From Candidatus Bathyarchaeota archaeon (lineage in GTDB: Archaea; Thermoproteota; Bathyarchaeia; Bathyarchaeales; Bathyarchaeaceae), in the NCBI GenBank assembly GCA_050123155.1, contig JASFHP010000002.1, forward strand, positions 3,990-67,989: 64,000 nt of DNA, read 5' to 3'. The translations under genes and the position numbers were made by a program. Below are positions 12,258 through 53,679 of the stretch, piece after piece. Position 1 is the stretch's first letter; each line of letters opens with the position of its first letter. The notes under the pieces are model-generated. The model worked only from the letters and a program-made list of their open reading frames with translations. It ran no database searches and was not told where the DNA came from.

Positions 12258-12445
12258 TACTGCCCGATTGAATGTACTCCCTCTTCTTGCAGTCTGTTTT
12301 GTACCTGTTCCAAAAGAAATACCGCACGATACTAAAGAATAGATCAAGAAGCTCTGTCCCATCCCATAACCAGAGAAACTGGCCAATGTTAGTGAGAATG
12401 GGCAGGCATACAATGTTATTTATACCACTTTGTGAGAGAGAAAAA

Positions 12446-14872
12446 ATGTCTGCATCTTTAACTAAGAGATTGAGGGCAAGTTTCGTTATTTGCTTGATTG
12501 GTAGTTTGATGGTGGCATCCATTGCTGGAGGAGCCCTACAAGTTGTAGGCAGTCCGTTACAGACTCTTGAATCTGATGTTAGCCAATCAAAAGCGGGTTA
12601 TCAAGATAGACAAATAGCCCAGTTGAAAGCGTTCATAGATAGTTCCTTGCCCTCTTGGGCGATGCCCTCTTGGGCAGTTGCTGTATTGTATCTTAAAAAA
12701 TTAACCAATATAGATTATGGTGTTGCGGAGGCAAACAGCATTCTCCAAACTTTTGAATGTAGCGGTGGTGAAGACGCTAAAGTTTTTGTCCGCAGTTATT
12801 TTCTATTTAAAGATGAGCCTGTTAGTTTGATGTATCAGGCTACCAAGGATCATTTACGCGCCGAGTTGAAAAAGTTTACCTATAGTGGCCCTACCCAAAA
12901 AGATTTAGATTATATCTGGTATGCAACTTACCCCGACGGCAGTGGTAATGTATATCCTTCATACACAGAGAATCATAAAATGTTCAAAGCGCAACTGTAT
13001 CTTCTGGCAAACCAAGAATTCAAGAACGAATCATCTACGTATCAAGAGAATTATGAGCAATGGAAAACATGGTGGCACAAGTGGTTTGATGAACATGCAA
13101 AAAAGGGATGGTCAGAAATTGCCAATTCTTATTTGTATGGTTTTTCTTTAGTCTCAATCTGCAATGTGTGTGATTTTGTTGACGATTCAAAAATCAAATT
13201 GAACGCCGAGATGACGATCGATTGGTTGTTAGCTGACCACGTTATTGAACAGTTTGGAGGAATACGTGGCGGAGGCAAAGTTCGAACATATACCAGATAT
13301 TCATCACTAGAGTGGAATAGGGGATACTTAGATTATCTGTTTTTTGGTAGTCACGATGAGGTATATTGGAAAGAAGACGGAGAGATATTGAGTACAACTA
13401 GTTATCGGCCCCCAGATGTGTTGATAGACTTAGCTTTGGATGAAGATAAGGGTGTATATGAGATAAAAGAACGCAGACCTTACGGCATATCTGTTACTGA
13501 TCAAAGGTGGCAGGTTAGAAAATATACATATGTTACGCCATCTTATATTCTAGGTGGTTTCCAACGCGGAGACAGCATAAAAGGATACACGTCACACTCA
13601 AACGATCATTTGTTTGGATTAACCTTCAATACTGACGATGACGCATTCATCTTTCCTTGGGGTAAAAATTATGGGATTCCACAAGATCAGCAAGCGTGTT
13701 CTCGTGACCAGGTTTATCAATACAAGAATGTGATGATAGTGACTATGGGTGGTACAACTTCTTGGAAATATGCTAGTACAGAGGGTTACGGCGATCCAAA
13801 TGAAGCACCGGCACGTTGCTATTTTGCTAATTCTGTATTGGACGAAAAGATTGAAGAATCAGGATGGATTTTCATAAAAGAAGGAAACGCTTATGCTGCA
13901 TATAGACCTGTGTCGGGAGGGTACGAATGGAAAAATGAGGATTGGTGGTCAGACCACTTTGACAGCGGTATATATGCAGTGTCTGATGGACCTCTGATCC
14001 CCGCAATCCTTGAAGCCGCCCAAGCTTCAGATTACAGTTCTTTCGAAGCGTTCATAGATGACATTAAAAGTAGATATTTATCCTATAGTAACGACACAGT
14101 GACATATGAGGAATCAGATGGCAAAATGATAGAAGTAGCTTTTGAGGCTCTTTATGATGGTAACAATATCAAGATTGATGGTCAAACACAAGCAACAGAA
14201 CTTGAAAATTACAAGACATTTGAAAGTCCTTACATCAATTCTGATTGGAACTCTGGATATATTGTGATTAGTAAGGATGGAAGAACGTGCATATTAGACT
14301 TCAGAGACTCTGAGAACCCAATAAAAACATGTGAAACAAATGAAAATTCACCACTGATTTCTGTCAGTCCCTCAACTATTGAAGTGCCCAAAGTAGGTGT
14401 TAGTTTTTTGGTTAATATTACCATAACTAATGCAGTTGATGTTCGGGCGTGGAATATGAAAGTTACTTGGGACCATGAGATATTGGAATTCACATCCATT
14501 ACTGAAGGTGATTTCCTAAGCAATGTTGGATCAACCGTTTTTGCGGCAGATGCTCCGCTTCTTTTACCAAACTATAATGACCTTTACCCCGGCGAAATTC
14601 CAGGTCTTTCTTGTGAACTAACAAGTGCACAAAGTGCAACCGGTAGCGGCGTCTTAGTAACGTTGAAATTTACTTCTCAAAGCAATGGTACATGCACTAT
14701 ACTGTTGGAAGACACGGTGCTAAATGGAATTGATGGAGCGTTAGTCATCGAACATAATGTAAGCGATGGAGAAGTTGACGTTATTCCAGAATTTCAAACT
14801 TGGATCCTATTTCCAATTTTTGTAACACTGGCCATATTTTCGGTCTTAGCAAGAAAGCTTCGCGCTCGCTAG
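12446..14872 (+). CDS. Secreted protein: possible heparinase II/III-like polysaccharide-lyase region, cohesin-like module and PEF-CTERM-like anchor
   Basis: Signal peptide MSASLTKRLRASFVICLIGSLMVASIAGG. YTSHSNDHLFGLTF is a heparinase II/III-like motif (tentative). The cohesin-like pattern is VNITITNAVDVRAWNMKVTWDHEILEFTSITEGDFL. The tail is IPEF + TM + RKLRAR. Confidence 0.6.
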   Translation: MSASLTKRLRASFVICLIGSLMVASIAGGALQVVGSPLQTLESDVSQSKAGYQDRQIAQLKAFIDSSLPSWAMPSWAVAVLYLKKLTNIDYGVAEANSILQTFECSGGEDAKVFVRSYFLFKDEPVSLMYQATKDHLRAELKKFTYSGPTQKDLDYIWYATYPDGSGNVYPSYTENHKMFKAQLYLLANQEFKNESSTYQENYEQWKTWWHKWFDEHAKKGWSEIANSYLYGFSLVSICNVCDFVDDSKIKLNAEMTIDWLLADHVIEQFGGIRGGGKVRTYTRYSSLEWNRGYLDYLFFGSHDEVYWKEDGEILSTTSYRPPDVLIDLALDEDKGVYEIKERRPYGISVTDQRWQVRKYTYVTPSYILGGFQRGDSIKGYTSHSNDHLFGLTFNTDDDAFIFPWGKNYGIPQDQQACSRDQVYQYKNVMIVTMGGTTSWKYASTEGYGDPNEAPARCYFANSVLDEKIEESGWIFIKEGNAYAAYRPVSGGYEWKNEDWWSDHFDSGIYAVSDGPLIPAILEAAQASDYSSFEAFIDDIKSRYLSYSNDTVTYEESDGKMIEVAFEALYDGNNIKIDGQTQATELENYKTFESPYINSDWNSGYIVISKDGRTCILDFRDSENPIKTCETNENSPLISVSPSTIEVPKVGVSFLVNITITNAVDVRAWNMKVTWDHEILEFTSITEGDFLSNVGSTVFAADAPLLLPNYNDLYPGEIPGLSCELTSAQSATGSGVLVTLKFTSQSNGTCTILLEDTVLNGIDGALVIEHNVSDGEVDVIPEFQTWILFPIFVTLAIFSVLARKLRAR

Positions 14873-15982: not shown

Positions 15983-17524
15983 ATGAGTAATATTTTGAAT
16001 CGGATTTGTGGCATTATGAAAAAACTGTTTTGCAGATTTGATGTTCACAAATTAGCAAGTTTAATAATCATTTTTTGGTTTCTAGCTAATGCTTCGATGG
16101 TTGTGGCTGCCAATAGCAATGAAATTAAAATTATGCCTTTGGGAGATTCCATAACTAACGGTGACAGTAATGGGTGCTATAGACAAAACTTATATCTGAA
16201 CCTGATAGATGCTGGTTTTGACGTAGATTTTGTTGGAAGCCAATCTTATCCTAGTTCACCGGACCCTCCATTTGATACCGATCATGAGGGTCATTCTGGA
16301 TGGTGTGCTTATGAGATACGAGACAATGTGTATGATTGGCTTGAGTTAAATCCAGCAGACTTTGTATTACTTCACATCGGAACAAATGATGTTGCCTTGG
16401 GAACTGAAGATGTTAATGAAATCGCGGAAATTCTAGATGAGATTGATCGATATGAAACAAACTATGCTAGAACTGTTAGAGTCTTTCTGGCTCGCATAAT
16501 ATTAAGATCCGATGATTCTGCACTAAACGAAACAACCAAAGATTTTAACAATGCCGTCGATGGTATGGCCCAAGCACGAATTAGTAACGGAGACGACATC
16601 ACTATCGTAGATATGGAAAATGCTCTAATCTATCCGGACGATATGCGACCTGCTGATGGGGAACATCCCAACGGGGTCGGATATGAAAAAATGGCAGATG
16701 TTTGGTATACCGCTGTATACAACGAACTAATCACTAACAGACCTGTTGCTAACTTTTATGCTTCTCATGTTTCTGGGTTTGAGCAATTGACTGTAAGTTT
16801 CAGTGATGCTTCAACCTCTAATGCTGGTGTTATTTCTTGGTTGTGGGATTTTGGGGATGGAGAAACCAGCAGTGACCCGAATCCAGCACATGTTTATGGT
16901 GAGGGTACATACACGGTTTCGTTGACTGTGGAAGAAGCGGATGGAGACAGTGATACTGAAACCAAGACAGACTATATCACTGTAAAACCTCCAAATTCTC
17001 CTCCAATAGCTAATTTCAACATTCAATCCTCAGCCAAACCAGCAATCAACGAAGAAATCTCTTTCATAGATCAATCCTCTGACACGGACGGCACCGTTAC
17101 TTCATGGTCGTGGATTTTTGGAGACGGAACCACATCATCAACACAAAATGCCACTCACAAATACCAATCTATCGGCAACTATACAGTCTCCCTCACAATC
17201 GAAGATGATGCTGGAGCTACTAGCACACAAACAAAACAGATAACAATCTATGAAATAGATGTTACCAACCCCGATTCTGATGGAGATGGAATACCCGATG
17301 AATGGGAATTACTTCATGGGTTAGATCCGTTGAATCCCTCGGATGCTTCTAGCGACCGTGATGGTGACGGAATCAGCAATCTCGAAGAGTACCAAATGGA
17401 AAATGGCATTGAAGTTCATGATTTTCCAGATTTAACCTTGTCCATCGTACTGGTGATAGCTGTATTTTTCTTGCTCATTTTTGTAGTGTTTTACACTCGA
17501 AAGTTGCGGAAGAGAAAAAACTAA
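15983..17524 (+). CDS. Secreted SGNH/GDSL hydrolase with 2 PKD domains, a Ca-binding D-x-D-G-D-G repeat pair and a C-terminal TM anchor
   Basis: IMPLGDSITNG (SGNH block I). Two PKD-like WDFGDG/WIFGDG units. DSDGDGIPDEWE and DRDGDGISNLEEY repeats. The tail is FPDL + TM + RKLRKRKN. Confidence 0.8.
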   Translation: MSNILNRICGIMKKLFCRFDVHKLASLIIIFWFLANASMVVAANSNEIKIMPLGDSITNGDSNGCYRQNLYLNLIDAGFDVDFVGSQSYPSSPDPPFDTDHEGHSGWCAYEIRDNVYDWLELNPADFVLLHIGTNDVALGTEDVNEIAEILDEIDRYETNYARTVRVFLARIILRSDDSALNETTKDFNNAVDGMAQARISNGDDITIVDMENALIYPDDMRPADGEHPNGVGYEKMADVWYTAVYNELITNRPVANFYASHVSGFEQLTVSFSDASTSNAGVISWLWDFGDGETSSDPNPAHVYGEGTYTVSLTVEEADGDSDTETKTDYITVKPPNSPPIANFNIQSSAKPAINEEISFIDQSSDTDGTVTSWSWIFGDGTTSSTQNATHKYQSIGNYTVSLTIEDDAGATSTQTKQITIYEIDVTNPDSDGDGIPDEWELLHGLDPLNPSDASSDRDGDGISNLEEYQMENGIEVHDFPDLTLSIVLVIAVFFLLIFVVFYTRKLRKRKN

Positions 17525-17816: not shown

Positions 17817-18965
17817 ATGAAGGACCCAAGTTTAGAGAAAATTCTAGTGACAGGTGGAGCTGGTTTTATCGGTTCCCACACTGCAGATCTTCTAATAAAC
17901 AATGGATATGACGTAACCGTAGTAGACAACTTGGAACCCCAAGTTCATGGAAAACTTCAAGCTAAACCAGATTACATAAACAAAGACGCAACCTTCATCC
18001 AACATGACCTTCAAGACCAGAATTTTCTAAAAAAAATGCTTTCAGAAGTTGACGCTGTAATCCATCTTGCCGCCCTTGTTGGTGTGGGTCAATCAATGTA
18101 CCAAATTGAACGCTACATCAACGGAAACACCGGTGCCACCGCTACCTTACTCGATATACTAGCAAAAGAAGAACATAACATAAAAAAACTTGTAGTAGCC
18201 TCCTCCATGAGCGTCTACGGAGAAGGAAAGTACTACTGCGAAGAATGTGCCACCGAAGTCTACCCCAACTTACGGACTCACCAACAACTGAAAAACCAGC
18301 AATGGAATCAATTGTGTCCGAGCTGTGGTTCAATCGTTAAGCCGTTACCAACTGACGAAAATAAGCCTCTGATGGCAACATCCATCTACGCCCAATCCAA
18401 ACGTCATCAAGAGGAAATGTGCCTGCTAGTCGGAGAAACCTATGGTATACCGGCAGTGGCTCTCAGATACTTCAATGTTTATGGTTCCCGCCAATCGTTA
18501 TCGAATCCATACACAGGGGCATGCGCTATCTTCACAAGTCGTATACTAAATGACAAATCACCCTATATATTCGAGGATGGCAACCAAAAGAGAGACCTTA
18601 TTCATGTGACAGACATAGCGCAAGCAAACTTGAAAGCACTCGAAAACAGCAACGCAAACTACGAAGCCATAAACATTGGAACAGGAAAAGCAATCTCAAT
18701 CGTCGAACTGGCGGAAACCTTGATAGAACTCTACAACAAACCTAACCTCAAACCACACGTATCCAACGAATACCGCAAAGGCGACATTAGACATTGCTAC
18801 GCCGACACAACAAAAGCTCAAAAGCTCCTCAATTTCAAGCCCGCAACAACTCTACAGGAAGGGCTAACCGAGCTAGCTGGATGGGCCAAAACCCACGGAT
18901 GGGACGCAGTAGACCTCTTCGAAAAAGCGTTGCAAGAACTTAAGGCAAAACGTCTTGCAACCTAA
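17817..18965 (+). CDS. NAD-dependent sugar epimerase/dehydratase (extended SDR) with an inserted CxxC...CxxC zinc-ribbon
   Basis: VTGGAGFIGSH and YAQSKRHQE (YxxxK). The insert is CEECATEV-x19-CPSCGS. Confidence 0.85.
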   Translation: MKDPSLEKILVTGGAGFIGSHTADLLINNGYDVTVVDNLEPQVHGKLQAKPDYINKDATFIQHDLQDQNFLKKMLSEVDAVIHLAALVGVGQSMYQIERYINGNTGATATLLDILAKEEHNIKKLVVASSMSVYGEGKYYCEECATEVYPNLRTHQQLKNQQWNQLCPSCGSIVKPLPTDENKPLMATSIYAQSKRHQEEMCLLVGETYGIPAVALRYFNVYGSRQSLSNPYTGACAIFTSRILNDKSPYIFEDGNQKRDLIHVTDIAQANLKALENSNANYEAINIGTGKAISIVELAETLIELYNKPNLKPHVSNEYRKGDIRHCYADTTKAQKLLNFKPATTLQEGLTELAGWAKTHGWDAVDLFEKALQELKAKRLAT

Positions 18966-18983
18966 TCTCATCTTTTGTTCTGT

Positions 18984-19082: not shown

Positions 19083-21140
19083 ATGGAAAAAGTCGGAATG
19101 AAACTGAAGCCATTTTCTTCCTTGAATCAAGAGACTGTAGTGATATCCATCAAATTTTTCGTGTTAATATTTACAATAGGAGCCGTTTTTTTTCAAGATT
19201 TAGCCCTAATATTTAAAGACGCTTTACAAACTGAAACAACAAGTTACATTCTAGCTCTCCCCTTCTTAATTGCCTATCTTGTTTACCGAAAAAGAAAAAT
19301 GATAAGGGCAGTAATCACAGTTGACGATCCAGACCAACCGAAAAAGATTAAACACCTACCAACAATCATCGGCATCCTAATCTCAATAACTGCGATGTTC
19401 GCCTACGGATATGGCTCATACACCTTCGCATCTCTGGAATGCCACATTCTCGCTCTGCCCATTTTCGCATCTGGGCTAATACTTATCCTTTTCAATAAAC
19501 AAACACTCAGACAATTAGCTTTCCCCATAGCCTTCCTCGTACTATTAACCCCACCACCAGCAGAAATCCTTTACACCTTAGGTTCAACATTATCACTAAT
19601 AGGTTCAGAAGTCTCCTACAACATCGTAAGACTAGTCAGTATACCTGCCACCCTAATAAGCGAATACGGCAGTCCAGTAATACAGATTACAAGATCAGCC
19701 GGCACAACAATAAACTTTGCCGTAGACATCGCATGTTCAGGCATCTACAGCCTAATCGGTTTCTTAATATTCGCGGTGTTCATTGCTTATATAATGCGGG
19801 ACAAAACATGGAAAAAACTCACATTATTTGTAATCGGATTCCCCGTAATCTACATACTTAACATAATAAGAATAACTACAATTCTCCTAATAGGTTACCA
19901 CTACGGCGAAGAAATTGCACTACAGCTTTTCCACCTGTTAGGCGGATGGGCTCTCATATTTCTAGGGACATTCTTGCTACTGATAATTACAGAAAAACTC
20001 TTACGTGCACAAATCTTCACCAAACAACCACAAAAATGTCCAGGATGCAATCCAAAACCTAATCTAAACTATAATTCTTGCCTCACATGCGGAAGGATAT
20101 TAAAGCCTGCCTCCTTCCGATTACCAAAAACAAACATAATCAAAATGGCTACAATAATTATCAGCGCAATCCTACTAATATCCATTCAAGCACCAGTTTT
20201 TGCTCTAGTAGAGGGCCCTGCGCAAATAATGACTCAGACATCAGAAGGCGAACAAGGCAATATCCAGCTACTGCCACAAATCGAAGGATACACTCTAGAT
20301 TTTGTATACCGTGACACAAACTTCGAGGAAGCTGCGGGGCAAGACGCGTCACTCCTCTATATCTATCAACCCATAGATAGAACAAAGGAAATTGTATGGG
20401 TGACGATTGAAATTGGACCACGTTCATCTCTTCACAGCTGGGAATCGTGCATCATTAGTCACCAACTAAGAATCGGGCGAACTCCAGAAGGAACGCAACT
20501 CGACAATAAAGAGATTCAAATCCAAGAAAACCCGCCTATAATTGCACGGTATTTTGCATTCCAATGGGTAGAAACAAACGAAACCCAAGTAGTTCTGTAC
20601 TGGTTCGGAACCTCATACTTCAAAACAAATGAAACAACATATGAACAAAACCATCTAAAAATAAGCCTGATCACTTATCCTGACACACCCCAAGAAATAA
20701 CAGATGTAGAAACCCTGATACCCTTTGCAGCGGCAATAGCAAGTCACTGGCAACCAATCAAAACTTTGTCGGCAATAACTGTATTCTTATCCCAAAATGG
20801 CGTACACTTTGCCGCGATAACCAGCGCGTCAGCAATTGGCATAATAATCATTTACTACTTGGAGACAAGAAAACAAAGAAAATTAAACACTAATACATAC
20901 CAAAAGCTATCAACACCATGTAAACAGATTATAGACGCAGTTTTGGAAACGCAAAAATCCACAGCAGCCACGCTACACGCTATTGCCGGCACATACAAAA
21001 ACAAAACAGGGAAAAACATAGAAAAGGAAGAGTTATTTCAGAGAATCTCGGAAGTAGAAAGAATAGGCGTAATAAAAAGCTATGTGACAAGCAACCAAGA
21101 TGAGCCAATTCAGATATGGAAAGCGGAGATTTTTTCCTAA
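19083..21140 (+). CDS. Archaeosortase/exosortase-family protein fused to a Zn-ribbon, an EpsI-like extracytoplasmic domain and a C-terminal winged-helix-like tail
   Basis: Polytopic core with DIACSGIYSL (Cys), LNIIRITT (Arg) and LFHLLGGW (His). Then CPGC-x13-CLTCG, a TM helix, a ~200-aa domain containing SSLHSWESC, another TM helix and an ~85-aa helical tail. Confidence 0.8.
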   Translation: MEKVGMKLKPFSSLNQETVVISIKFFVLIFTIGAVFFQDLALIFKDALQTETTSYILALPFLIAYLVYRKRKMIRAVITVDDPDQPKKIKHLPTIIGILISITAMFAYGYGSYTFASLECHILALPIFASGLILILFNKQTLRQLAFPIAFLVLLTPPPAEILYTLGSTLSLIGSEVSYNIVRLVSIPATLISEYGSPVIQITRSAGTTINFAVDIACSGIYSLIGFLIFAVFIAYIMRDKTWKKLTLFVIGFPVIYILNIIRITTILLIGYHYGEEIALQLFHLLGGWALIFLGTFLLLIITEKLLRAQIFTKQPQKCPGCNPKPNLNYNSCLTCGRILKPASFRLPKTNIIKMATIIISAILLISIQAPVFALVEGPAQIMTQTSEGEQGNIQLLPQIEGYTLDFVYRDTNFEEAAGQDASLLYIYQPIDRTKEIVWVTIEIGPRSSLHSWESCIISHQLRIGRTPEGTQLDNKEIQIQENPPIIARYFAFQWVETNETQVVLYWFGTSYFKTNETTYEQNHLKISLITYPDTPQEITDVETLIPFAAAIASHWQPIKTLSAITVFLSQNGVHFAAITSASAIGIIIIYYLETRKQRKLNTNTYQKLSTPCKQIIDAVLETQKSTAATLHAIAGTYKNKTGKNIEKEELFQRISEVERIGVIKSYVTSNQDEPIQIWKAEIFS

Positions 21141-21156
21141 AAAGGGTGAATGTTAT

Positions 21157-22353
21157 ATGCAAGAACTTCGAATCTTCAATAATGAAAGAAACCTTGAAGC
21201 TAGAAAGATGTATGAAACAAGTTTAACGAAAGTTATAACCTTCATATTTCTTGTCATGGGTGCGATTGCCCTATTCGTTTCTATTGTTTACGCTTCTTCA
21301 ATATTGGCTTTTATAGGCCTAGGTCTAGTCTTCTGGGGTGCATTCCTCGCATACATCCAACCCGAACAATACACAAAAAAGGTTATCCTAGACGCAACAG
21401 TAATTCCTTCAATAGATACCTTGAATCAAATAATACAAGAACTGAACTACAAAGGCAAAGCAATATACCTGCCGCCAGAATACCTCAAAAATCCAGAAGC
21501 AAGCAAAGTCTACATATCTAAGCAAAAAGAAGGAGAACTTCCAGAACCTGAACTAACCATAAAACATGAAAACAAACTCTTCGTTGGAAACCCAAATGGC
21601 ATTCTGTTGACACCACCCGGCGCCCAATTATCAAGACTCTTCGAAAAACTACTAGATACGAACTTCACAAAAACTGACCTAAACTACATCACCCACAACA
21701 TGCCAAAAATCCTAATAGAAAACCTCGAAATCGCAGAAAACGTAAAAATAGAAACAGAAAACAACAAAATCAAAATAAAAATAACCAACTCTACCTTCAA
21801 AGAAACACACAAAGGAACTGACAAGCTTTCACATACGTACCCTTACTTCAGCTGCCCACTCTCAAGTGCCGTCGCCTGTGCATTCACAAAAGCCACAGGA
21901 AAACCAATAGCCATCGAAAATGTGCAAGTATCCGAAGATGGAAATGTTGTCGAAACAACCTACCACATTCTGGGAAATATTGAAACTGAAACGGGTTCAC
22001 CAGAGACAGGAAAAATTGAAATTGAAACTGAAACATATTCACCAGCAATAAAATCTGAAGGACTTCTAACAGAATCCAGCCAACTATTAACAAGAAAGCA
22101 TCTTTTGTCGAATCTAGCCAGCTTATTCCTAACTTCTTTTGGGTTAATTATTCTAGTTTGGGTCGGCTGGTTAACATGGTATGATATGACTGTTTGGAGT
22201 AAGAACATTGTCACTATATTCCTTGGGTCTAGAGTAGGCGAAGCTATCAGCCTAGGGATAGGCATGAAACTGATTTACTATCTTCTAATAGGTCTAGCAT
22301 CCTTTCTTTCAGGACTAGTTACATACATACGTTCGAATATGAGGAAGGTGTAA
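21157..22353 (+). CDS. Uncharacterised membrane protein (2 N-terminal and ~3 C-terminal TM helices around a soluble domain)
   Basis: GGGTGA RBS 8 nt upstream of the ATG, which lies 16 nt after the archaeosortase stop. The central domain has YFSCPLSSAVACAFTKATGKPIAIENV, which is faintly V4R-like (very tentative). Confidence 0.6.
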   Translation: MQELRIFNNERNLEARKMYETSLTKVITFIFLVMGAIALFVSIVYASSILAFIGLGLVFWGAFLAYIQPEQYTKKVILDATVIPSIDTLNQIIQELNYKGKAIYLPPEYLKNPEASKVYISKQKEGELPEPELTIKHENKLFVGNPNGILLTPPGAQLSRLFEKLLDTNFTKTDLNYITHNMPKILIENLEIAENVKIETENNKIKIKITNSTFKETHKGTDKLSHTYPYFSCPLSSAVACAFTKATGKPIAIENVQVSEDGNVVETTYHILGNIETETGSPETGKIEIETETYSPAIKSEGLLTESSQLLTRKHLLSNLASLFLTSFGLIILVWVGWLTWYDMTVWSKNIVTIFLGSRVGEAISLGIGMKLIYYLLIGLASFLSGLVTYIRSNMRKV

Positions 22354-22355
22354 AA

Positions 22356-22568
22356 ATGAGGATCCCATTATCTTTCTGGGACATAAGCCTGTGGCTAGCA
22401 GTCACAGCCATAATCCTGCTTATAACTTCAGAACTCATATCACCATATTACAGAAAAAGCAAAATCTATGTCAACAAACAGAGACTAAGAAATACGGCAT
22501 TCATCGTTGGAACACTATTTCTTATGACAGTAATTATGCGCATGTATGAAATTATAATGTTCGCATAA
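22356..22568 (+). CDS. Small two-TM membrane protein
   Basis: It starts 2 nt after the upstream stop codon and has two clear hydrophobic helices. I recognise no family. Confidence 0.5.
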   Translation: MRIPLSFWDISLWLAVTAIILLITSELISPYYRKSKIYVNKQRLRNTAFIVGTLFLMTVIMRMYEIIMFA

Positions 22569-22678
22569 TATAATATGTGCATGCATTTAACAAACAAAAT
22601 TCTATAACATCCATCCATACGATTTTAAATAGAGGATTAATGAGATTAATCACAAGTAAATTTAGGAAGAACAACAAC

Positions 22679-23356
22679 ATGAAACTGAAGAATTATGTAA
22701 TGTTATTTATGGTTCTGTCTCTGATTTCGATTCCTTGTGTGATGGCAAACGGAGCAGGTCTTTTAAGAATAGATCCCTATTGGCCCACGACGGTTGGTAG
22801 TCCTGCTGAATTCGAAGTATGGTGTAATTCTGGTAATTCATATGACGTGAAGATCCATTTGGCTGTAACTAAAGATTGTTATGATTCAATGGCTGCTACA
22901 GATGCAGTTGTGGTCGAATATGGCGGTTCTGTGATAGCCTCTTTTGATAAGGGGGATTTCACAGGTGTTACTGCTAATGGTGAAAAAGTTCCTGCCGTTA
23001 TAGGATACACGGTTGCGAGTCTGAAAGACCACATAGATGAAGGCCTAAGCACTCCGCTTGGAGCAAGCGACACAATTTATTGGGCTTGGAAACCTCTCGC
23101 TAACGCAGCTTTTGACCCCCTCGGTGAAGACCATGAAGAAATCACGGTAACCGTAAATGCAGGAAACATAAGAATGCTGGTCCACCTGTTTGGAAACAGT
23201 GTAGACAATAGCGGAGAGTTCGATATGAGAGTGCCTACAACACCATCAGGGTTCGTTATTCCGGAAGTTGCAGTTGGATCTGTAATGGCCGTTGCAGCTA
23301 TGTTCACTGCTCTGGGACTATTCGCCTACAAGAAAAAACACAAACCAACAAAATAG
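22679..23356 (+). CDS. Secreted protein with a PEF-CTERM-like anchor
   Basis: Signal peptide MKLKNYVMLFMVLSLISIPCVMANG. The tail is VIPEV + TM + KKKHKPTK. AGGAAG RBS. Confidence 0.65.
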   Translation: MKLKNYVMLFMVLSLISIPCVMANGAGLLRIDPYWPTTVGSPAEFEVWCNSGNSYDVKIHLAVTKDCYDSMAATDAVVVEYGGSVIASFDKGDFTGVTANGEKVPAVIGYTVASLKDHIDEGLSTPLGASDTIYWAWKPLANAAFDPLGEDHEEITVTVNAGNIRMLVHLFGNSVDNSGEFDMRVPTTPSGFVIPEVAVGSVMAVAAMFTALGLFAYKKKHKPTK

Positions 23357-23519: not shown

Positions 23520-24113
23520 ATGAACCAAAAAAACAAAGACACGCTTGATAAAACACTGATAAAACTAGTGCAAGAAAAAAAACCAGCAAACGTACAACAA
23601 CTGGTTGATCTAACGAAATCAGAGATTTCCTTTATCCCAGAACAGAAAATTCTCCAACATATCCTCCGACTTGAAAGCCAAGGCAAAATAACGCTAGAAC
23701 CTTTAACACAAACTCCACCAAAATTAAGCACATATCTAAAGACGCCAGAGGCTACATGGTACTGGATAACCATTTTTCTGGCAACGACGACAGCATTAAT
23801 CATATTCATTATCCCAGAGAACTCCCCACTAATATATTTAAGACAGGTTCTTGGAGCCATCTTTGTTGTATTCCTGCCAGGCTACAGCCTCATCAAAGCA
23901 TTATTTCCAGAGAAAAACTTGGATACCATAGAACGCATCGTCCTAAGCCTAGGAATGAGCTTAGCCCTAGTTCCCGTCACAGGACTAATGCTCAACTACA
24001 CACCATGGGGCATAAGAACCATCCCAATCACCCTAAGCCTTCTAACCCTTACAATCATCTTTGCCACTGTAGCCATCATAAGAGAACACCAAACCAAAAA
24101 ACAAAGCCAATGA
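23520..24113 (+). CDS. DUF1616-like membrane protein with an N-terminal winged-helix-like module
   Basis: VLGAIFVVFLPGYSLIKALFP...SLGMSLALVPVTGLMLNYTPWGI resembles the DUF1616 N-terminal membrane region. The N-terminus (LIKLVQEKKPANVQQLVDL...ILRLESQGKITLEP) is wHTH-like. Confidence 0.6.
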   Translation: MNQKNKDTLDKTLIKLVQEKKPANVQQLVDLTKSEISFIPEQKILQHILRLESQGKITLEPLTQTPPKLSTYLKTPEATWYWITIFLATTTALIIFIIPENSPLIYLRQVLGAIFVVFLPGYSLIKALFPEKNLDTIERIVLSLGMSLALVPVTGLMLNYTPWGIRTIPITLSLLTLTIIFATVAIIREHQTKKQSQ

Positions 24114-24181: not shown

Positions 24182-25705
24182 ATGGAAACTGGCAACATAG
24201 CTGGAGGAACTCTCAGGATAACACTTGCCAACGCCTCCCAATACGTAATTATTGCAGTATTCTACATGGTTGTCACAAAAACAAATGCCCTATCTCAAAC
24301 AGACATCGGCACTCTATCAATCCTTAGCTTTCTCGCTTCCACCTTCTCATTGCTGACCATGCTGGCACTACCTACGGCCCTAACAAAATTCACTTCTGAA
24401 AACATGGGAAAAAACCAAAAAGAGAAGGCAACAGCAACACAAAAAGCAATAACAAAAATTGTAATCGCATTATCGATATCAGGACTCTTAGTAGCTGCCC
24501 TCTTTTCACCACTAATTTCTCAATATTTATTGGGCAATCCTGAATACGCAATCATTCTCATCCTAAATTTTGTCTATGCTTCTCTATCCAACATAACAGC
24601 TTTATGTAGATCTACTCTACAAGCACTCTACCTTTTCGGAAAAATGGCTACCATCACCCTAACATTCTACCTGACAAGTCGATTAACAGCCCTCCTCTTA
24701 GCATTGTTTCAGATGGGCGCCACAGGAGTAATAATAGGCTATATAGTCGGATCAGTAATAGCCATAGTCCTTGCCCTGAGCCTTCTTCATAAAAAACTGC
24801 CGAGAACAACAGAAAAAATTTCACTGAAACCGTTGCTGCACTTCAGTTTTCCCCTGTTTTTAAGCTCCGTAACAGAACTTGTACTATCATGGGCAGACGT
24901 CGTAATTTTAACTTCACTAACAGGCGACTTATCTTTAACCGGAATCTACCATATTGTGGTCAATAGCGTAGGCGCCCTCGGAATCTTATACATATCCGTA
25001 AACACCACAATATTCCCAGCCCTATCAGCACACCACGGTCTCGAAAAACCCCAAAACATCAGCAAGACCCTAAAAACCACAAGCCGATACCTTATCTATA
25101 TACTCCTCCCTAGCTGCATAGGATTAGCAATCATAGCACCAACAGCTCTCACCTTCTTCTACGGTCCCAGCTATGTAAAAGGAGCCTTACCACTTGCAAT
25201 CCTATCAATAACAACAATAATCATGGCGCTATTATCACTATGTAAAACAACATTTCAAGCCATAGGAAAAACAGGTCAAATACTAAAAATTAACATAATT
25301 GCAGCTATATCATCAGTTCTAATGTTGCTTTCACTCGTCCCTCTTTTCGAAACAACGGGAGCAGCGTTCGCTCGCATAACCACACAAGCAATAGTCCTCG
25401 TCGTAGCAGTTTACATTCTAAGAAGGGAAATCAAAATACAAATAGACAAAGAAGCGATATGGAAAGCTACAGTCTCTACATTGGCAACTGTCCCCTTCTT
25501 ACTCGCCATCGAACTAATCTTAAGCAAAAACTTTTCCACAACCCAAACCCTCGCCCTAGAACTACTAACCGCAACAGGAATCTATGCAGTCTCCATTTAT
25601 GCTCTAAAGGCACTGAAAAAACAGGACTTCCAACTGCTAAGACAAGCTTTCCCCAAACCTCTCACAAAATACATCAACATACTAGAGCGCATAATCGTCA
25701 GATAA
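24182..25705 (+). CDS. MOP/Wzx-type polysaccharide (oligosaccharide-lipid) flippase
   Basis: About 14 TM segments, 507 aa, with the typical size and hydrophobicity pattern, in glycan-locus context. Confidence 0.75.
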   Translation: METGNIAGGTLRITLANASQYVIIAVFYMVVTKTNALSQTDIGTLSILSFLASTFSLLTMLALPTALTKFTSENMGKNQKEKATATQKAITKIVIALSISGLLVAALFSPLISQYLLGNPEYAIILILNFVYASLSNITALCRSTLQALYLFGKMATITLTFYLTSRLTALLLALFQMGATGVIIGYIVGSVIAIVLALSLLHKKLPRTTEKISLKPLLHFSFPLFLSSVTELVLSWADVVILTSLTGDLSLTGIYHIVVNSVGALGILYISVNTTIFPALSAHHGLEKPQNISKTLKTTSRYLIYILLPSCIGLAIIAPTALTFFYGPSYVKGALPLAILSITTIIMALLSLCKTTFQAIGKTGQILKINIIAAISSVLMLLSLVPLFETTGAAFARITTQAIVLVVAVYILRREIKIQIDKEAIWKATVSTLATVPFLLAIELILSKNFSTTQTLALELLTATGIYAVSIYALKALKKQDFQLLRQAFPKPLTKYINILERIIVR

Positions 25706-25780: not shown

Positions 25781-26374
25781 ATGAGACATAAAATGAAAGG
25801 AAAAATATTAACAATAGGGTTTTTAACAGTTATCGCATCCCTTCTATTGTGCAGTGCAGTCCATGCCTCATGGTCAACCCTAGAAACGGGTTACGCCGTA
25901 ACTTCAGATTGGAAAGGAATGCAAACAGAAGATGGTACACCTGTAACCATAACAGCAGGTACACTTGATCCCACCGTAACATCAGTGACCTTCGGATGGT
26001 TATCAATCCCAGACGGAGGCGGCAATTATGTATTAGAAGAAACCGTGCCAGTCTATACAAATGGCACCATTGGACAGTGGAAGGACGGCACGCCAGCTGA
26101 AATAAGGTATGCCAGTAGTACTTATGTAGTAGTCCCTGAAGGCTTTTGGGCAGTCCAAGTATTCTTTAACTCTGAAGAAGGCGATCCTGTCATTAACTCT
26201 GAAGGAGAAGGCAATGTTGTAAACCAACAGTTCTCTTGGATAGGTACAATGCAGTCCGATAACAGCACGGTCTTTCCTACTCCAGAAATACCATTAGGAA
26301 CAATTGGAGCATCAGTCGCTATGGTAGCCGCTTTAGGACTATTCATGATAAAGAAGAAAAGACGCCAAGAATAG
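25781..26374 (+). CDS. Secreted protein with a PEF-CTERM-like anchor
   Basis: Signal peptide ...LLLCSAVHAS. The tail is TPEIPLGT + TM + KKKRRQE. Confidence 0.65.
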   Translation: MRHKMKGKILTIGFLTVIASLLLCSAVHASWSTLETGYAVTSDWKGMQTEDGTPVTITAGTLDPTVTSVTFGWLSIPDGGGNYVLEETVPVYTNGTIGQWKDGTPAEIRYASSTYVVVPEGFWAVQVFFNSEEGDPVINSEGEGNVVNQQFSWIGTMQSDNSTVFPTPEIPLGTIGASVAMVAALGLFMIKKKRRQE

Positions 26375-26640: not shown

Positions 26641-27108
26641 TTAGCTGGTTCCAACTATGTTGATGTCAAAGCTGAAGTTTGTTACTCCTTCAATGCTTCC
26701 ATCTACGGATAGAGTGAATGTAACTTGAACTACTGCATATCCATTGATGGGATTTCCATTATAGTTCCAGCTGAGACTAAGATAATCTGCGGCTTCTGGT
26801 GGGGCCCAACCTGAGGGGTACATAGATAGGGTCAATGCTGAACTGCCTTCGTTCCTGATGTAGCAAACTTTGGCTTGGCTTTCTCCTGGTTGAAGTGTTC
26901 CCCATGCTAAAGAAGTTAGTGGAGTGGCACATCCGACATCGTGATAAACGCCGATGTTGGCAGTAGTTTGTATCTGTATTGATCCTGTACTGGATAATGT
27001 TTCGGTTGCCTGAGTTGCAGGGTATGCTTGACTTATCAGTGATAGACCTAATGTGTAGGTTATGAGTATGATTATGGCGCCTGTGATTATGGACTCTTTG
27101 CTTGCCAT
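26641..27108 (-). CDS. Secreted or membrane-anchored beta-rich protein of unknown function
   Basis: N-terminal hydrophobic segment IITGAIIILITYTLGLSLIS, then a Ser/Thr/Gly-rich beta-type sequence. I recognise no family. Confidence 0.5.
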   Translation of the reverse strand: MASKESIITGAIIILITYTLGLSLISQAYPATQATETLSSTGSIQIQTTANIGVYHDVGCATPLTSLAWGTLQPGESQAKVCYIRNEGSSALTLSMYPSGWAPPEAADYLSLSWNYNGNPINGYAVVQVTFTLSVDGSIEGVTNFSFDINIVGTS

Positions 27109-51033: not shown

Positions 51034-53679
51034 ATGAAGAATAAACTATCTATTGCAATTACGATGTTGATTACGCTTTTACTGGCAAGTTCAACTTTTG
51101 TGTCTATTGCCTTCTGTCCTTATCCACCATCAGGAACCGAAATCCCAACATACAGCAACATCACTGTTGGCCCTAACCCTGTTGGCATCAACCAGGAAGT
51201 TACCATCAACTTATTCAATGCCGTACCCACAATCACCAGCGAACCCTACTATGGTCTAACAGTTGAAGTAACCGATCCTAGCGGACACACCACCACACTG
51301 GGACCCTTTGACAGCGACACCACCGGAGGTACTTTCACTACCTTTACTCCTGACCAAGTTGGTATTTGGGAATTCCAAATGTTCTCTCCAGGTCAAACAC
51401 TATCTAGGGGTTACATCCAATTACCTGGCGAAAGCAAGGTTTTTGAACTAAAAGTACAGGAAGACCCAGTAGGACGAGAAAGCTATCCATCTCCCCCGGG
51501 TCCAGAACACTATTGGGAGACTCCAGTTAATGCAATGAATGCTGAAAAATGGTATGACCACATGGGAGAATGGTGGGGTCTTAGCGGCATAACCTTTGAA
51601 CAAACTGGCTCAAACTATAATAACGGAAACTATAATCCATACACTGACTCGGTTTATTCTGGTCACGTTCTCTGGACAAAACCATGGGGTGCAGGCGGTG
51701 TAGCTGGTGGCGAATCAGGTATTGATCAAGTTACAGGACACTTCTGGACCACTAGGCAGTACCAACCACAATACGCACCGATAATACTGGAGGGCGTAAT
51801 GTATTCAGTTCTGTGGACAACATCACAGAGTAGTGCAGCACATAACGGCATTATCGCAACAGACCTGTTCAGTGGAGAAACGCTCTGGACAATAGAAGAC
51901 ACCCAAGAAACGTTGAGAGTAGGCTGGTCGCCTACTTGGCACAACCTTAACGAATACGGAACATTAGGTCCCTACCTCATAACCACAGGTTCACACCCAG
52001 GAGTTACATCTAGTGGAACAACATACAACATTTACGACGCCACCACTGGCAAATACATGGCAAGCATCGTTAACGGAGAGAGCATGACCCTCATTATAGA
52101 CGATGACCGAGACTTGGTTGGCTTCTATCAAGAAGTCAGTGGTAGTGACCGCTATCTGATCCGTTGGGACATGACCGAATGTGTCGGAATGACAACGAAT
52201 GGCGAACCTGGTTTCGGATGGGGTCTGAACCAGGACGCAACATACCAGTTCGACAACGGAATAGTGTTCTCTGAACCAATGATGGCTTTCGCCGATATGG
52301 ATGGAGTAACCGATCCTTCACAACTTTCAGGAGGCGGCTTCATGGGACAGTCATTCAGAATCAGTGGAGTAACTAACGATGAAGTAGTGTTCACAGGCGG
52401 TTACACTTTGGGACAAGGAGTCGGCGGAGAAACAAACGGATGGCTAACTGTAGCAACCATGGACAAAAACACTGGAGCTCAGTTGTGGGGTAAAAACCTC
52501 ACATACGCAGAATCTCCAACGTTCTTGCCATTCACAAGAACTGAAATGGGCATGCAAGACGGACTGTGGATTAACGCCAACATGGAGAACTTTATAGTTG
52601 AAGCTTGGGATACAAGAACAGGAGAAAAAGCATGGACATCAGAACTAACAGGTGATAACGGTGCCGAGCCACATTACTTCGACGCATTTAACCTCCGCTG
52701 GTCGCCTGGACCCGAAGGTGCATCATTCTTCAGAGGCTATGGGGGCGACATATGGTGCATCGAACATGCGGACGGAAACGTACGATGGTATACTAACACA
52801 ACTAAACTCGTTGGCCCACCAGGAGCTGACAGCCCCTACAATGTTTGGCTACTATGGGTTTTCGAGTGTGACTGTATAACCAACAACGTAGCATACTTCC
52901 CCATCGGTCACGAATATAACCCACCACTGTTCCCTGGAGCACAAATGTGTGCAGTAAACATCACTGATGGCTCTCTAGTGTGGTCCGAATTGGGAATGTA
53001 CATTAGATCCACATCGTGTGCATACGACATTCTGTTATCGCTGAATGCGTACGACAACCAGATATACGCTTGGGGCAAAGGCCCAAGTGCAACTTCAGTC
53101 GCAGCATCACCAAAAGTTACAGTACACGGAAACAGCGTAATAATTGAAGGCTCAGTCACTGACATTTCTGCAGGCACAAACCGGGACGATGTTGCAGCAA
53201 ACTTCCCGAATGGTGTTCCATGCGTTTCTGATGAGAGTATGAGCGATTGGATGGAATACGTCTATATGCAGCAGGCAAAGCCTGAAGATGTTGAAGGCGT
53301 CAAAGTATTCGTGAAAATACAAGATCCTAATGGCGACTGGTACTCAGCCACTGTCACAACGGATGAAAATGGTGTGTTCAGTCACATGTGGGCTCCCGCC
53401 ATTGTCGGCGAGTACAAGGTTACTGCGATGTTCGAAGGCTCCAACTCCTATTGGCCTTCAGAGGCATCAACCGCTTTCGGTGTAGACGAAGCGCCAGCAG
53501 CAGAAGACGTTCCCAGTGCAGCAGAGATTGCTGAGACAACAGTAAACCAGATGCCAGCGTACCCAACAATTCCAGAAATACCCGCATACCTGACAATAGA
53601 CCTAGTCATACTGATAATCGCTGTCGTCGTTTTGGTCATCGGCTTACTGGCTTACATGGCACTCAGAAAACAGAAATAA
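51034..53679 (+). CDS. Secreted PQQ-like beta-propeller repeat protein with an Ig/CarboxypepD_reg-like domain and a PEF-CTERM-like anchor
   Basis: Signal peptide. Repeated G-x-x-x-W motifs (GETLWT, GAQLWG, GEKAWT, GNVRWY, GSLVWS). The tail is TIPEIPAYL + TM + LRKQK. Confidence 0.75.
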   Translation: MKNKLSIAITMLITLLLASSTFVSIAFCPYPPSGTEIPTYSNITVGPNPVGINQEVTINLFNAVPTITSEPYYGLTVEVTDPSGHTTTLGPFDSDTTGGTFTTFTPDQVGIWEFQMFSPGQTLSRGYIQLPGESKVFELKVQEDPVGRESYPSPPGPEHYWETPVNAMNAEKWYDHMGEWWGLSGITFEQTGSNYNNGNYNPYTDSVYSGHVLWTKPWGAGGVAGGESGIDQVTGHFWTTRQYQPQYAPIILEGVMYSVLWTTSQSSAAHNGIIATDLFSGETLWTIEDTQETLRVGWSPTWHNLNEYGTLGPYLITTGSHPGVTSSGTTYNIYDATTGKYMASIVNGESMTLIIDDDRDLVGFYQEVSGSDRYLIRWDMTECVGMTTNGEPGFGWGLNQDATYQFDNGIVFSEPMMAFADMDGVTDPSQLSGGGFMGQSFRISGVTNDEVVFTGGYTLGQGVGGETNGWLTVATMDKNTGAQLWGKNLTYAESPTFLPFTRTEMGMQDGLWINANMENFIVEAWDTRTGEKAWTSELTGDNGAEPHYFDAFNLRWSPGPEGASFFRGYGGDIWCIEHADGNVRWYTNTTKLVGPPGADSPYNVWLLWVFECDCITNNVAYFPIGHEYNPPLFPGAQMCAVNITDGSLVWSELGMYIRSTSCAYDILLSLNAYDNQIYAWGKGPSATSVAASPKVTVHGNSVIIEGSVTDISAGTNRDDVAANFPNGVPCVSDESMSDWMEYVYMQQAKPEDVEGVKVFVKIQDPNGDWYSATVTTDENGVFSHMWAPAIVGEYKVTAMFEGSNSYWPSEASTAFGVDEAPAAEDVPSAAEIAETTVNQMPAYPTIPEIPAYLTIDLVILIIAVVVLVIGLLAYMALRKQK

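Follow-up and report, generated by a model that had tools for sequence, protein, structure and literature searches.

Why should an archaeal sorting enzyme be more than twice as long as its catalytic core? The question is raised by a 64,000-nucleotide stretch of DNA from Candidatus Bathyarchaeota archaeon (NCBI GenBank assembly GCA_050123155.1, contig JASFHP010000002.1, positions 3,990 to 67,989 of the forward strand), which we call the window and number from its first letter. Positions 19083..21140 (+) hold a gene that an initial annotation, made from the letters of the sequence, read as an archaeosortase joined to a zinc ribbon, an EpsI-like ectodomain and a winged-helix-like tail. We find this fused exosortase to be real, conserved and hitherto undescribed, but it is a variation on a known system and does not amount to a new kind. 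The gene probably encodes a surface-protein-sorting enzyme of the exosortase family in uncultured Bathyarchaeia, with a ribbon, an EpsI-like domain on the outside of the cell and a winged-helix tail. What is new is an exosortase clade that is confined to Bathyarchaeia, lies below every curated subfamily cutoff and has its own signal flavours. Also new are the very divergent EpsI-like domain, the zinc ribbon, a second transmembrane (TM) helix and the winged-helix tail.

The fusion and its catalytic core

The gene is a single open reading frame (ORF) of 685 amino acids that starts at an ATG, in a frame that the ORF listing gives as open from a TTG at 18975. The ORF listing and the conserved full-length homologues together define its order of parts: core, zinc ribbon, TM9, EpsI-like ectodomain, TM10 and winged-helix tail. 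Every motif quoted in the initial annotation is present in the ORF, in the order and at the positions given there. DIACSGIYSL starts at residue 215, LNIIRITT at 259, LFHLLGGW at 282, CPGC at 319, CLTCG at 333, SSLHSWESC at 448, CKQIIDAV at 613 and ISEVERIGVIKSY at 655. As far as our computational tests reach, the four-module architecture is supported.

Kyte-Doolittle hydropathy places about eight TM segments in the core, a ninth at residues ~355-376 (TM9; 20145..20210, +; peak 2.54) and a tenth at residues ~573-593 (TM10; 20799..20861, +), the last followed by RKQRK. Lys and Arg residues number 3, 7, 2, 4, 10 and 15 in the alternate loops assigned to the inside, compared with 1, 0, 2 and 0 in the short loops assigned to the outside. 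The domain between TM9 and TM10 is acidic (11 Lys/Arg against 25 Asp/Glu) and has two N-x-T sequons. By a rule-based topology that uses hydropathy and the positive-inside rule only, TM9 would lead outward and TM10 back into the cytoplasm. The N-terminus, the ribbon loop (residues 304-354) and the tail (594-685) would then be cytoplasmic, and the catalytic residues and the 377-572 domain would face outward. This agrees with the in-out-in arrangement proposed earlier, in which ribbon and tail share the cytoplasmic side.

The core itself (residues ~19-303; 19137..19991, +) is an eight-TM exosortase/archaeosortase catalytic unit, identified from PF09721, TIGR04178, hydropathy and Lys/Arg counts. 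Both superfamily models pass their curated cutoffs: PF09721 (Exosortase_EpsH) matches residues 31-302 with an E-value of 8.4e-41 and 140.5 bits against a cutoff of 25.7, and TIGR04178, the NCBIfam signature domain, reaches 72.2 bits where 23 are required. We aligned the core with an annotated XrtD from a Ruegeria plasmid and an annotated XrtA from a Vibrio plasmid, both located by tblastn. C218 of DIACSG (codon 19734..19736, +), the predicted catalytic nucleophile at the outer end of TM6, falls on the ACSG of both proteins. R263 of NIIR (19869..19871, +), near the outer end of TM7, falls on their N..R, and H284 of FHLLGGW (19932..19934, +), at the outer start of TM8, on their H...GW. The three residues are invariant in 62 of 62 copies, a set made up of 61 full-length genomic copies and the window protein over which all residue conservation was counted. 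Cys, Arg and His form the inferred catalytic set of the exosortase family (bioRxiv 10.1101/2023.06.07.544157), and the proposal that the gene carries them at the catalytic positions is borne out by the alignment.

The same architecture recurs across many genomes. More than 1000 matches came out of a search through 5.8 billion proteins. The 120 best are 632-739 aa long and 53-77% identical to the query over 92-100% of its length, and one of them bears the NCBI name Candidatus Bathyarchaeota. A genomic scan with one genome per GTDB species returned 80 loci, 77 of them labelled Bathyarchaeia, Bathyarchaeota or Bathyarchaeales, with matches that cover residues ~1-683 at 33-61% identity. Full-length homologues are present in at least 61 species-level genomes. 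Over both searches, proteins with the whole architecture (61 genomic copies and the listed matches, which number over 100) are 33-77% identical to that of the window. Conservation extends beyond the active site: H451, W453, E454 and C456 of the ectodomain are kept in 59-62 of the 62 copies, and P675 and W679 of the tail in 61. Partial matches to the exosortase core also stand at contig ends in metagenome-assembled genomes labelled Desulfobacterales (L080, 48% identity) and Baldrarchaeota (L082, 39%), which may reflect mis-binning or a rare occurrence outside Bathyarchaeia.

Names attached to the homologues among the listed protein matches go no further than 'exosortase' or 'exosortase/archaeosortase family protein', and a literature search found no paper on exosortases of Bathyarchaeia. 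The four-module architecture had been put forward as uncharacterised. This holds for the ribbon, the second TM helix and the winged-helix tail, but bacterial XrtD already provides an example of an exosortase fused to EpsI. The best-scoring NCBIfam subfamily models are likewise bacterial (XrtD, E 4.8e-28; XrtA, 4.2e-27; XrtW, 6.9e-26), whereas the archaeosortase models give weaker E-values (ArtC, 2.4e-9; ArtF, 1e-7; ArtA, 3e-4). By score, the core appears nearer to bacterial XrtD, XrtA and XrtW than to ArtA-F. The label 'archaeosortase' is right at the level of the exosortase/archaeosortase superfamily, but the core resembles the exosortases more than it does the curated archaeosortases.

The outer domain and its likeness to EpsI

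Between TM9 and TM10 lies a 196-aa alpha/beta domain (residues 377-572; 20211..20798, +) that AlphaFold2 (AF2) models with a pLDDT of 85. It carries the conserved motif H451-x-W-E-x-C456, which the initial annotation had likened to the H-S-P-x-x-C region of EpsI-family proteins. On the strength of the AF2 model, profile alignments with hhalign and decoy tests with hidden Markov models (HMMs), we regard this predicted extracellular domain as a remote EpsI/DUF3485-like candidate. Its position is that found in fused XrtD, where a ~200-aa extracytoplasmic domain follows the core and one TM helix (Ruegeria XrtD).

For comparison we used an alignment of the Ruegeria XrtD DUF3485 domain (PF11984, E 2.5e-51, residues 330-533) and its relatives, which is of low diversity. 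Against this alignment, hhalign gives the ectodomain profile an E-value of 7e-4 and a probability of 26%, and the profile with 62 genomic sequences an E-value of 4e-4 and a probability of 35%. About 100 columns are collinear, pairing LHxWExCL with VHSPEVCLP, VLYWYE with LVYYWFEQ, KISLITYP with LVRLITPI, and the final helix; H451...C456 is thereby placed onto the HSPEVC of EpsI. With a single XrtD sequence in place of the alignment, just 14 columns were aligned. Of the 66 family members, 65 are matched by the EpsI HMM, and the matches listed as best all lie inside the ectodomain; among 726 decoys, shuffled or reversed, only 2 score as high as the median of 1.9 bits. In the reverse test, the ectodomain HMM matched all 46 of 46 EpsI sequences, with a median at about the 99th percentile of the decoys. 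PF11984 (DUF3485) itself is weakly matched by 8 of the 66 relatives (best E 6.9e-4).

Structure and family databases yielded little for this part of the protein. Neither residues 316-574 nor the tail drew a usable match from Pfam or NCBIfam, the hits being UFC1, DUF7173 and EAP30 at E 0.06-0.2. Sequence searches of the PDB with the single protein and with whole-protein, ectodomain and tail profiles found no relative, and no EpsI structure was found there by sequence. Foldseek matches of the ectodomain model (SciW, DcrB, LpqN, Apa and PYR/PYL) had TM-scores too low for us to assign a fold. Short 'TM-ecto-TM-tail' matches were considered as stand-alone proteins, but they start inside TM9 or with an adaptor-derived MYKRQ, and we treated them as contig-end fragments.

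Two readings would take the EpsI-like domain away from the enzyme, one by breaking up the gene and the other by denying the homology. The ORF could be an artefact of mis-assembly or of a frameshift that joins two or three genes. Its length, more than twice that of a stand-alone archaeosortase, would fit, and we found no other support for this reading. The same uninterrupted architecture stands in 61 full-length copies from separate genomes (33-61% identity) and in metagenomic proteins of 664-739 aa, of which over 100 are listed, and conservation runs continuously across all module junctions. Because the one-ORF architecture is conserved across genomes, a mis-assembly or frameshift fusion is excluded for practical purposes, and the check for such an artefact came out in favour of a true single-ORF fusion. 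The domain could, on the other hand, be a lineage-specific one unrelated to EpsI, its H-x-x-E-x-C likeness being convergent or a matter of chance, and several results weigh on that side. No Pfam or NCBIfam EpsI model matches the window protein even at E<=10, so the family cutoff is missed. An exhaustive search of 1.84 billion representatives with the ectodomain profile returned 269 proteins, the top 150 of which all belong to the enzyme's own family, with no EpsI among them. The hhalign probability for the link does not exceed the 26-35% given above, and the best PDB matches, DcrB, LpqN, SciW and Apa, reach TM-scores of 0.3-0.37. Such a domain would, however, have to share three or four motifs in the same order across 100 columns and to occupy the exact place of DUF3485 in XrtD. 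It would also have to account for the scores above 99% of decoys in the forward test, a like result in reverse, and the direct DUF3485 matches of some relatives. We regard an unrelated origin as possible but doubtful, and incline, with some reserve, toward a very divergent EpsI homologue that is a member by no curated threshold. The resemblance noted earlier has the collinear motifs, the matching position and the decoy tests on its side, but the link is weak, and no EpsI model matches the protein itself.

The predicted cytoplasmic ribbon and winged-helix tail

The loop between the core and TM9 contains CPGC-x10-CLTC (C319, C322, C333 and C336; 20037..20090, +) and is rich in Lys and Arg (10 K/R against 1 D/E). 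We predict that the four cysteines form a cytoplasmic zinc ribbon of two CxxC knuckles with a short spacer. The four-Cys motif of the initial annotation is present and conserved, but its two Cys pairs stand 10 residues apart, where the annotation gave x13. The cysteines are kept in 59-61 of the 62 copies. Among the 66 relatives, 45 match Pfam DZR and 8-10 each match Zn_ribbon_15, Zn_Ribbon_1, Zn_ribbon_3 and DZR_2, although the E-values of these zinc-ribbon models are weak (0.004-0.04; best 0.0045). The corresponding linkers of XrtD and XrtA contain no Cys, so the ribbon is lineage-specific. The NAD-dependent epimerase encoded directly upstream (17817-18965, +) has an inserted CxxC-x27-CxxC ribbon of its own (CEEC...CPSCGSIVKP), the end of which resembles the CLTCGRILKP of the exosortase. 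We dropped it as a conserved partner feature, as the insertion is found in the window and L059 only, among the related loci.

After TM10, the protein ends in a 92-aa tail (20862..21137, +) that AF2 and Foldseek resolve into a basic juxtamembrane helix and, after it, a winged-helix domain of three helices (H1-H2-H3) and a beta-hairpin wing. The AF2 model, built from 43 sequences, has a pLDDT of 87 and a pTM of 0.74, with the elements H16-31, H36-47, H53-66, E69-76 and E79-86. All of the top 50 Foldseek matches in the PDB are winged helices (probability 1.0, TMq 0.53-0.74, E ~2e-3), including those of archaeal Orc1/Cdc6, yeast Cdc6, Nur/Fur, PadR/LmrR and KAT6A, and Pfam Cdc6_C is weakly matched by 4 of the 66 relatives. 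The winged-helix fold of the tail, at first an impression from the sequence, is well supported as a prediction by the model and these matches.

The surface of the predicted domain bears on its role. The net charge is -1 at the median for helix 3, the recognition helix, and close to zero for the winged-helix core. The best-conserved residues are N602, Y606, K608 and L609 in the juxtamembrane helix, an acidic wing tip (D673-E674-P675) and then W679. Because helix 3 and the wing tip are acidic and the core is near neutral, we infer that the tail is better suited to docking than to DNA binding. Of the three roles first proposed for it (nucleic-acid, ligand or partner binding), nucleic-acid binding appears the least favoured. 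Even with a neutral surface, however, a winged helix may bind nucleic acid. The cytoplasmic module is probably not a sequence-specific DNA binder. More speculatively, and with lower confidence, ribbon and winged helix may act together in the cytoplasm, as a lineage-specific module that would either regulate the enzyme or serve as a docking site for a partner. The basic cytoplasmic ends of substrates, the N-terminal segment of a DUF1616 protein encoded downstream and glycan-assembly proteins are the candidates for that partner.

Candidate substrates, the surrounding locus and known systems

An enzyme of this family needs proteins to act on, and four ORFs of the window combine a signal peptide with a short C-terminal motif, a TM helix and a basic cluster. 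The likely best candidate for a dedicated substrate is a secreted 238-aa protein (22640..23356, +), picked out by a C-terminal scan and by synteny, that ends in PSGFVIPEV, a TM helix and KKKHK. Its syntenic counterparts, of ~220 aa, end in PGF[VIM][VI]PE in seven loci (L001, L016, L017, L020, L023, L033 and L059), and the tails of the L001 and L016 counterparts score above the PEP-CTERM cutoff. A second candidate, identified from its sequence and its occurrence at 15 loci, is a secreted 197-aa protein (25781..26374, +) ending in FPTPEIPLGT, a TM helix and KKKRRQE. The C-terminal scan adds two more: a large cohesin-domain protein (12272..14872, +) with the ending DVIPEF, TM helix and RKLRAR, and a secreted 881-aa protein (51034..53679, +) with the ending PTIPEIP, TM helix and RKQK. 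A further secreted protein at 15983-17524 (+), with a GDSL lipase, two PKD domains and TSP3 repeats, ends in HDFPDL, a very hydrophobic TM helix and RKLRKRKN. This tail may carry a further flavour of the signal or simply anchor the protein by its TM helix.

Such endings are common beside the enzyme. Counting co-occurrence of signal and enzyme at loci rather than in whole genomes, we found 62 neighbouring ORFs in 42 of 82 loci that end in [VILTM][VILP]PE, a TM helix and K/R, among 161 ORFs with a C-terminal TM helix and K/R. On a stricter count, 49 of 56 such ORFs lie within 3 kb of the exosortase gene, and their median length is 220 aa. The flavour of the signal also tracks the enzyme clade across loci L001-L082. 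Where the enzyme is at least 48% identical to that of the window, the signal is PEP or PE[IVL][AG]T; at 40-48% it is mostly PEY; and below 40% it is N-V-[VI]-P-E-x-P. Several genomes encode two paralogous enzymes (for example L003/L070, L021/L031 and L022/L066). These pairs, together with the clade-linked flavours, suggest parallel sorting systems in one cell.

Scored as isolated peptides, five VPEP tails from related loci (L001, L004, L012, L016 and L031) exceed the 16-bit cutoff of the PEP-CTERM model TIGR02595, at 17-29 bits. Tails of the PExP and PEY flavours from other loci stay below that cutoff and pass no other sorting model. An NCBIfam scan of the whole candidate substrates found no sorting domain; the matches came from isolated C-terminal peptides only. 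We consider it fairly probable that the locus is a Bathyarchaeia-specific PEP-CTERM-like exosortase system set within a glycan-biosynthesis locus. Some results pull the other way. The window's own tails (VIPEV, VIPEF, TPEIP and TIPEIP) pass no NCBIfam C-terminal sorting model, and the enzyme misses every curated subfamily cutoff, with 98.5 of 400 bits for XrtD, 95.2 of 208 for XrtA and 90.6 of 425 for XrtW.

The genes that follow the exosortase form a small cassette on the same strand, and gene-neighbour conservation was counted across 75 related loci. The two most conserved partners are a 417-aa polytopic membrane protein directly downstream (21100..22353, +; 54 of 75 loci) and a 70-aa protein with two TM segments (22356..22568, +; same relative position in 48 of 75). 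PF25939 (DUF7982) is recorded for the L001 counterpart of the former. If its start is at 21100, the 417-aa ORF overlaps the exosortase stop by 41 nt. Past the 238-aa candidate substrate lies a DUF1616 membrane protein (23520..24113, +; PF07760, E 6.6e-32; 24 loci) with a winged-helix-like N-terminal segment. This cytoplasmic segment of ~60 aa aligns with the exosortase tail over 48 hhalign columns (E 1.6e-3, probability 16%) and gives weak Pfam matches to TBPIP and HTH_24, so that two membrane proteins of one cassette may share a cytoplasmic module. A Wzx/MurJ-type polysaccharide flippase follows (24182..25705, +; Pfam Polysacc_synt and MurJ; 26 loci). In two homologues, P0123 (1209 aa) and P0135 (957 aa), a Wzx-like flippase is fused N-terminally to a complete exosortase-ribbon-ectodomain-tail; whether as a true fusion or as read-through, this ties the enzyme to glycan export. 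Further on, a 155-aa ORF with an N-terminal hydrophobic segment (26641-27108, -) has homologues in 37 related loci, usually ~4 kb downstream of the exosortase and in divergent orientation. Pfam found nothing significant on this ORF or on those at 21100-22353, 22356-22568 and 25781-26374.

More broadly, the first 30 kb of the window is a glycan and surface locus. It encodes a PMT_2-type GT-C enzyme, a radical-SAM/B12 enzyme, DUF362, GFO/IDH/MocA oxidoreductases, GT4 and GT2 glycosyltransferases, a GNAT acetyltransferase, a kinase-like protein, two epimerases and an aminotransferase in addition to the flippase. The G+C content is 0.36-0.42 over positions 1-30000 and 0.43-0.50 over 30001-64000, a contrast in keeping with a variable envelope island and typical for loci of this sort.

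Two alternative identities for the enzyme can be set against this background. It might belong to a described archaeosortase class, for example as an ArtC acting on PEF-CTERM substrates. ArtC is indeed the top-scoring archaeosortase model, the window has a VIPEF tail, and a PEF-like neighbour tail in L010 (PPIPEF...) matches PEF-CTERM weakly, at 15.4 bits. That score misses the PEF-CTERM cutoff of 23, however, and the tails that pass any model pass PEP-CTERM. The enzyme also remains under the archaeosortase cutoffs (37.5 of 100 bits for ArtC, 32.1 of 150 for ArtF, 20.3 of 75 for ArtA and 15.7 of 95 for ArtE), with XrtD, XrtA and XrtW scoring far higher, and we find this assignment very unlikely. 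The tail might instead make the enzyme a membrane-tethered transcription regulator, whose winged helix, with or without the ribbon, would bind DNA, either while still in the membrane or once freed by proteolysis, and link the state of surface-protein sorting or of the envelope to how the locus is expressed. Its predicted fold does match DNA-binding winged helices (Orc1/Cdc6 on DNA, Nur/Fur, PadR/LmrR and KAT6A), and membrane-anchored winged helix-turn-helix (wHTH) regulators such as ToxR and CadC exist. The tail pattern LS..K.II..V.E....T...IA......G..I....L...L.E.E..G.I resembles a MarR/TrmB-type helix-turn-helix (HTH), and a similar cytoplasmic segment is present in the DUF1616 neighbour. 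Yet the recognition helix is net acidic, and the wing tip holds a conserved acidic D-E-P, although wings that contact DNA tend to be basic there. The family scans gave no significant match to an HTH model. In every copy the tail terminates a 10-TM enzyme, and free-standing forms were not seen. A regulator of this kind is, in our judgement, unlikely. We hold out slightly less hope for a joint idea in which ribbon and winged helix would be a signalling output, making the protein a bifunctional sortase and membrane-tethered regulator that reports outside substrate or glycan load to transcription or to a cytoplasmic assembly machine. The same low estimate covers a related idea, in which the basic cytoplasmic end of the signal would be recognised by the module; exosortases would then have a hitherto undescribed site for substrate recognition on the cytoplasmic side.

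Under the reading that we prefer, a PEP-CTERM-like exosortase system, a working scheme can be drawn by analogy. After Sec export, substrates would be held in the membrane by their own C-terminal helix, as with XrtA and ArtA. The enzyme would then form a Cys-acyl intermediate, cutting the chain at the VPE motif or close to it, and remove that helix, in the manner of XrtA on PEP-CTERM and ArtA on PGF-CTERM proteins. The new C-terminus may be handed to another anchor, a lipid or a glycan. On the outside, the fused EpsI-like domain would act beside the active site, as in fused XrtD.

Bathyarchaeia are among the most abundant uncultured archaea of sediments and soils and, to our knowledge, almost nothing is known of how they build their cell surface. 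The locus offers a testable system for them: a sorting enzyme, a [VI][VI]PE signal with clade-dependent flavours, a small conserved cassette and, around it, genes for glycan assembly. With it, exosortase systems of the PEP-CTERM type, which have so far been treated as bacterial, reach into a class of archaea, and a new curated subfamily model with a matching sorting-signal model would be justified. The cytoplasmic zinc ribbon and winged helix, unusual for the family, may give a handle on exosortase regulation or substrate recognition, and a divergent fused version of EpsI would narrow down which of its residues matter, namely the His, Glu and Cys of the shared motif. We expect the locus to be useful to specialists in archaeal envelopes and to protein-family curation, with a modest chance that the cytoplasmic module reveals a new mechanism.

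Among known systems, XrtD (the VPLPA-CTERM exosortase, TIGR04152) offers the closest parallel in layout. Both enzymes have an eight-TM Cys/Arg/His core followed by one TM helix and a ~200-aa extracytoplasmic domain (DUF3485 in XrtD), and both stand in a polysaccharide-biosynthesis neighbourhood. Only positions 3-250 of the 486 in the XrtD profile match the window enzyme, however, at 98 bits against 400, and XrtD is without the linker zinc ribbon, the second TM helix and the cytoplasmic tail. The window's host is an archaeon with no outer membrane, its ectodomain is EpsI-like at a remote level, and its motif is [VI][VI]PE, not VPLPA. With XrtA/EpsH, EpsI and PEP-CTERM it shares the catalytic motifs, VPEP-type signals that pass TIGR02595 in related loci, and a locus of glycosyltransferases, a flippase and sugar-modifying enzymes; PEP-CTERM/exosortase systems are generally linked to exopolysaccharide (EPS) loci (bioRxiv 10.1101/2023.06.07.544157). 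It differs in scoring 95 bits against the XrtA cutoff of 208, in having signals of its own under the PEP-CTERM cutoff, in its extra cytoplasmic modules and in the few substrates that adjoin the enzyme at the loci examined, where XrtA systems have dozens scattered over the genome.

The archaeal enzymes ArtA-ArtF (PGF-CTERM, VPXXXP-CTERM, PEF-CTERM and others) belong to the same superfamily, share TIGR04178 and also have archaeal hosts, and by analogy with Haloferax ArtA we would expect removal of the C-terminal helix followed by re-anchoring. Yet all Art models score the window enzyme far under their cutoffs and under the bacterial Xrt models. The described Art enzymes, from halophiles and methanogens, consist of the core only, with no EpsI-like, ribbon or winged-helix modules. 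On the cytoplasmic side, the likeness is to ToxR/CadC-type regulators and to archaeal membrane proteins that end in a wHTH, such as the DUF1616 neighbour, in which a cytoplasmic winged helix is tethered to a TM helix with an extracytoplasmic domain opposite. Unlike in the ToxR/CadC type, the predicted winged helix here is C-terminal to a 10-TM enzyme, its helix 3 and wing tip are acidic, and no HTH model is passed.

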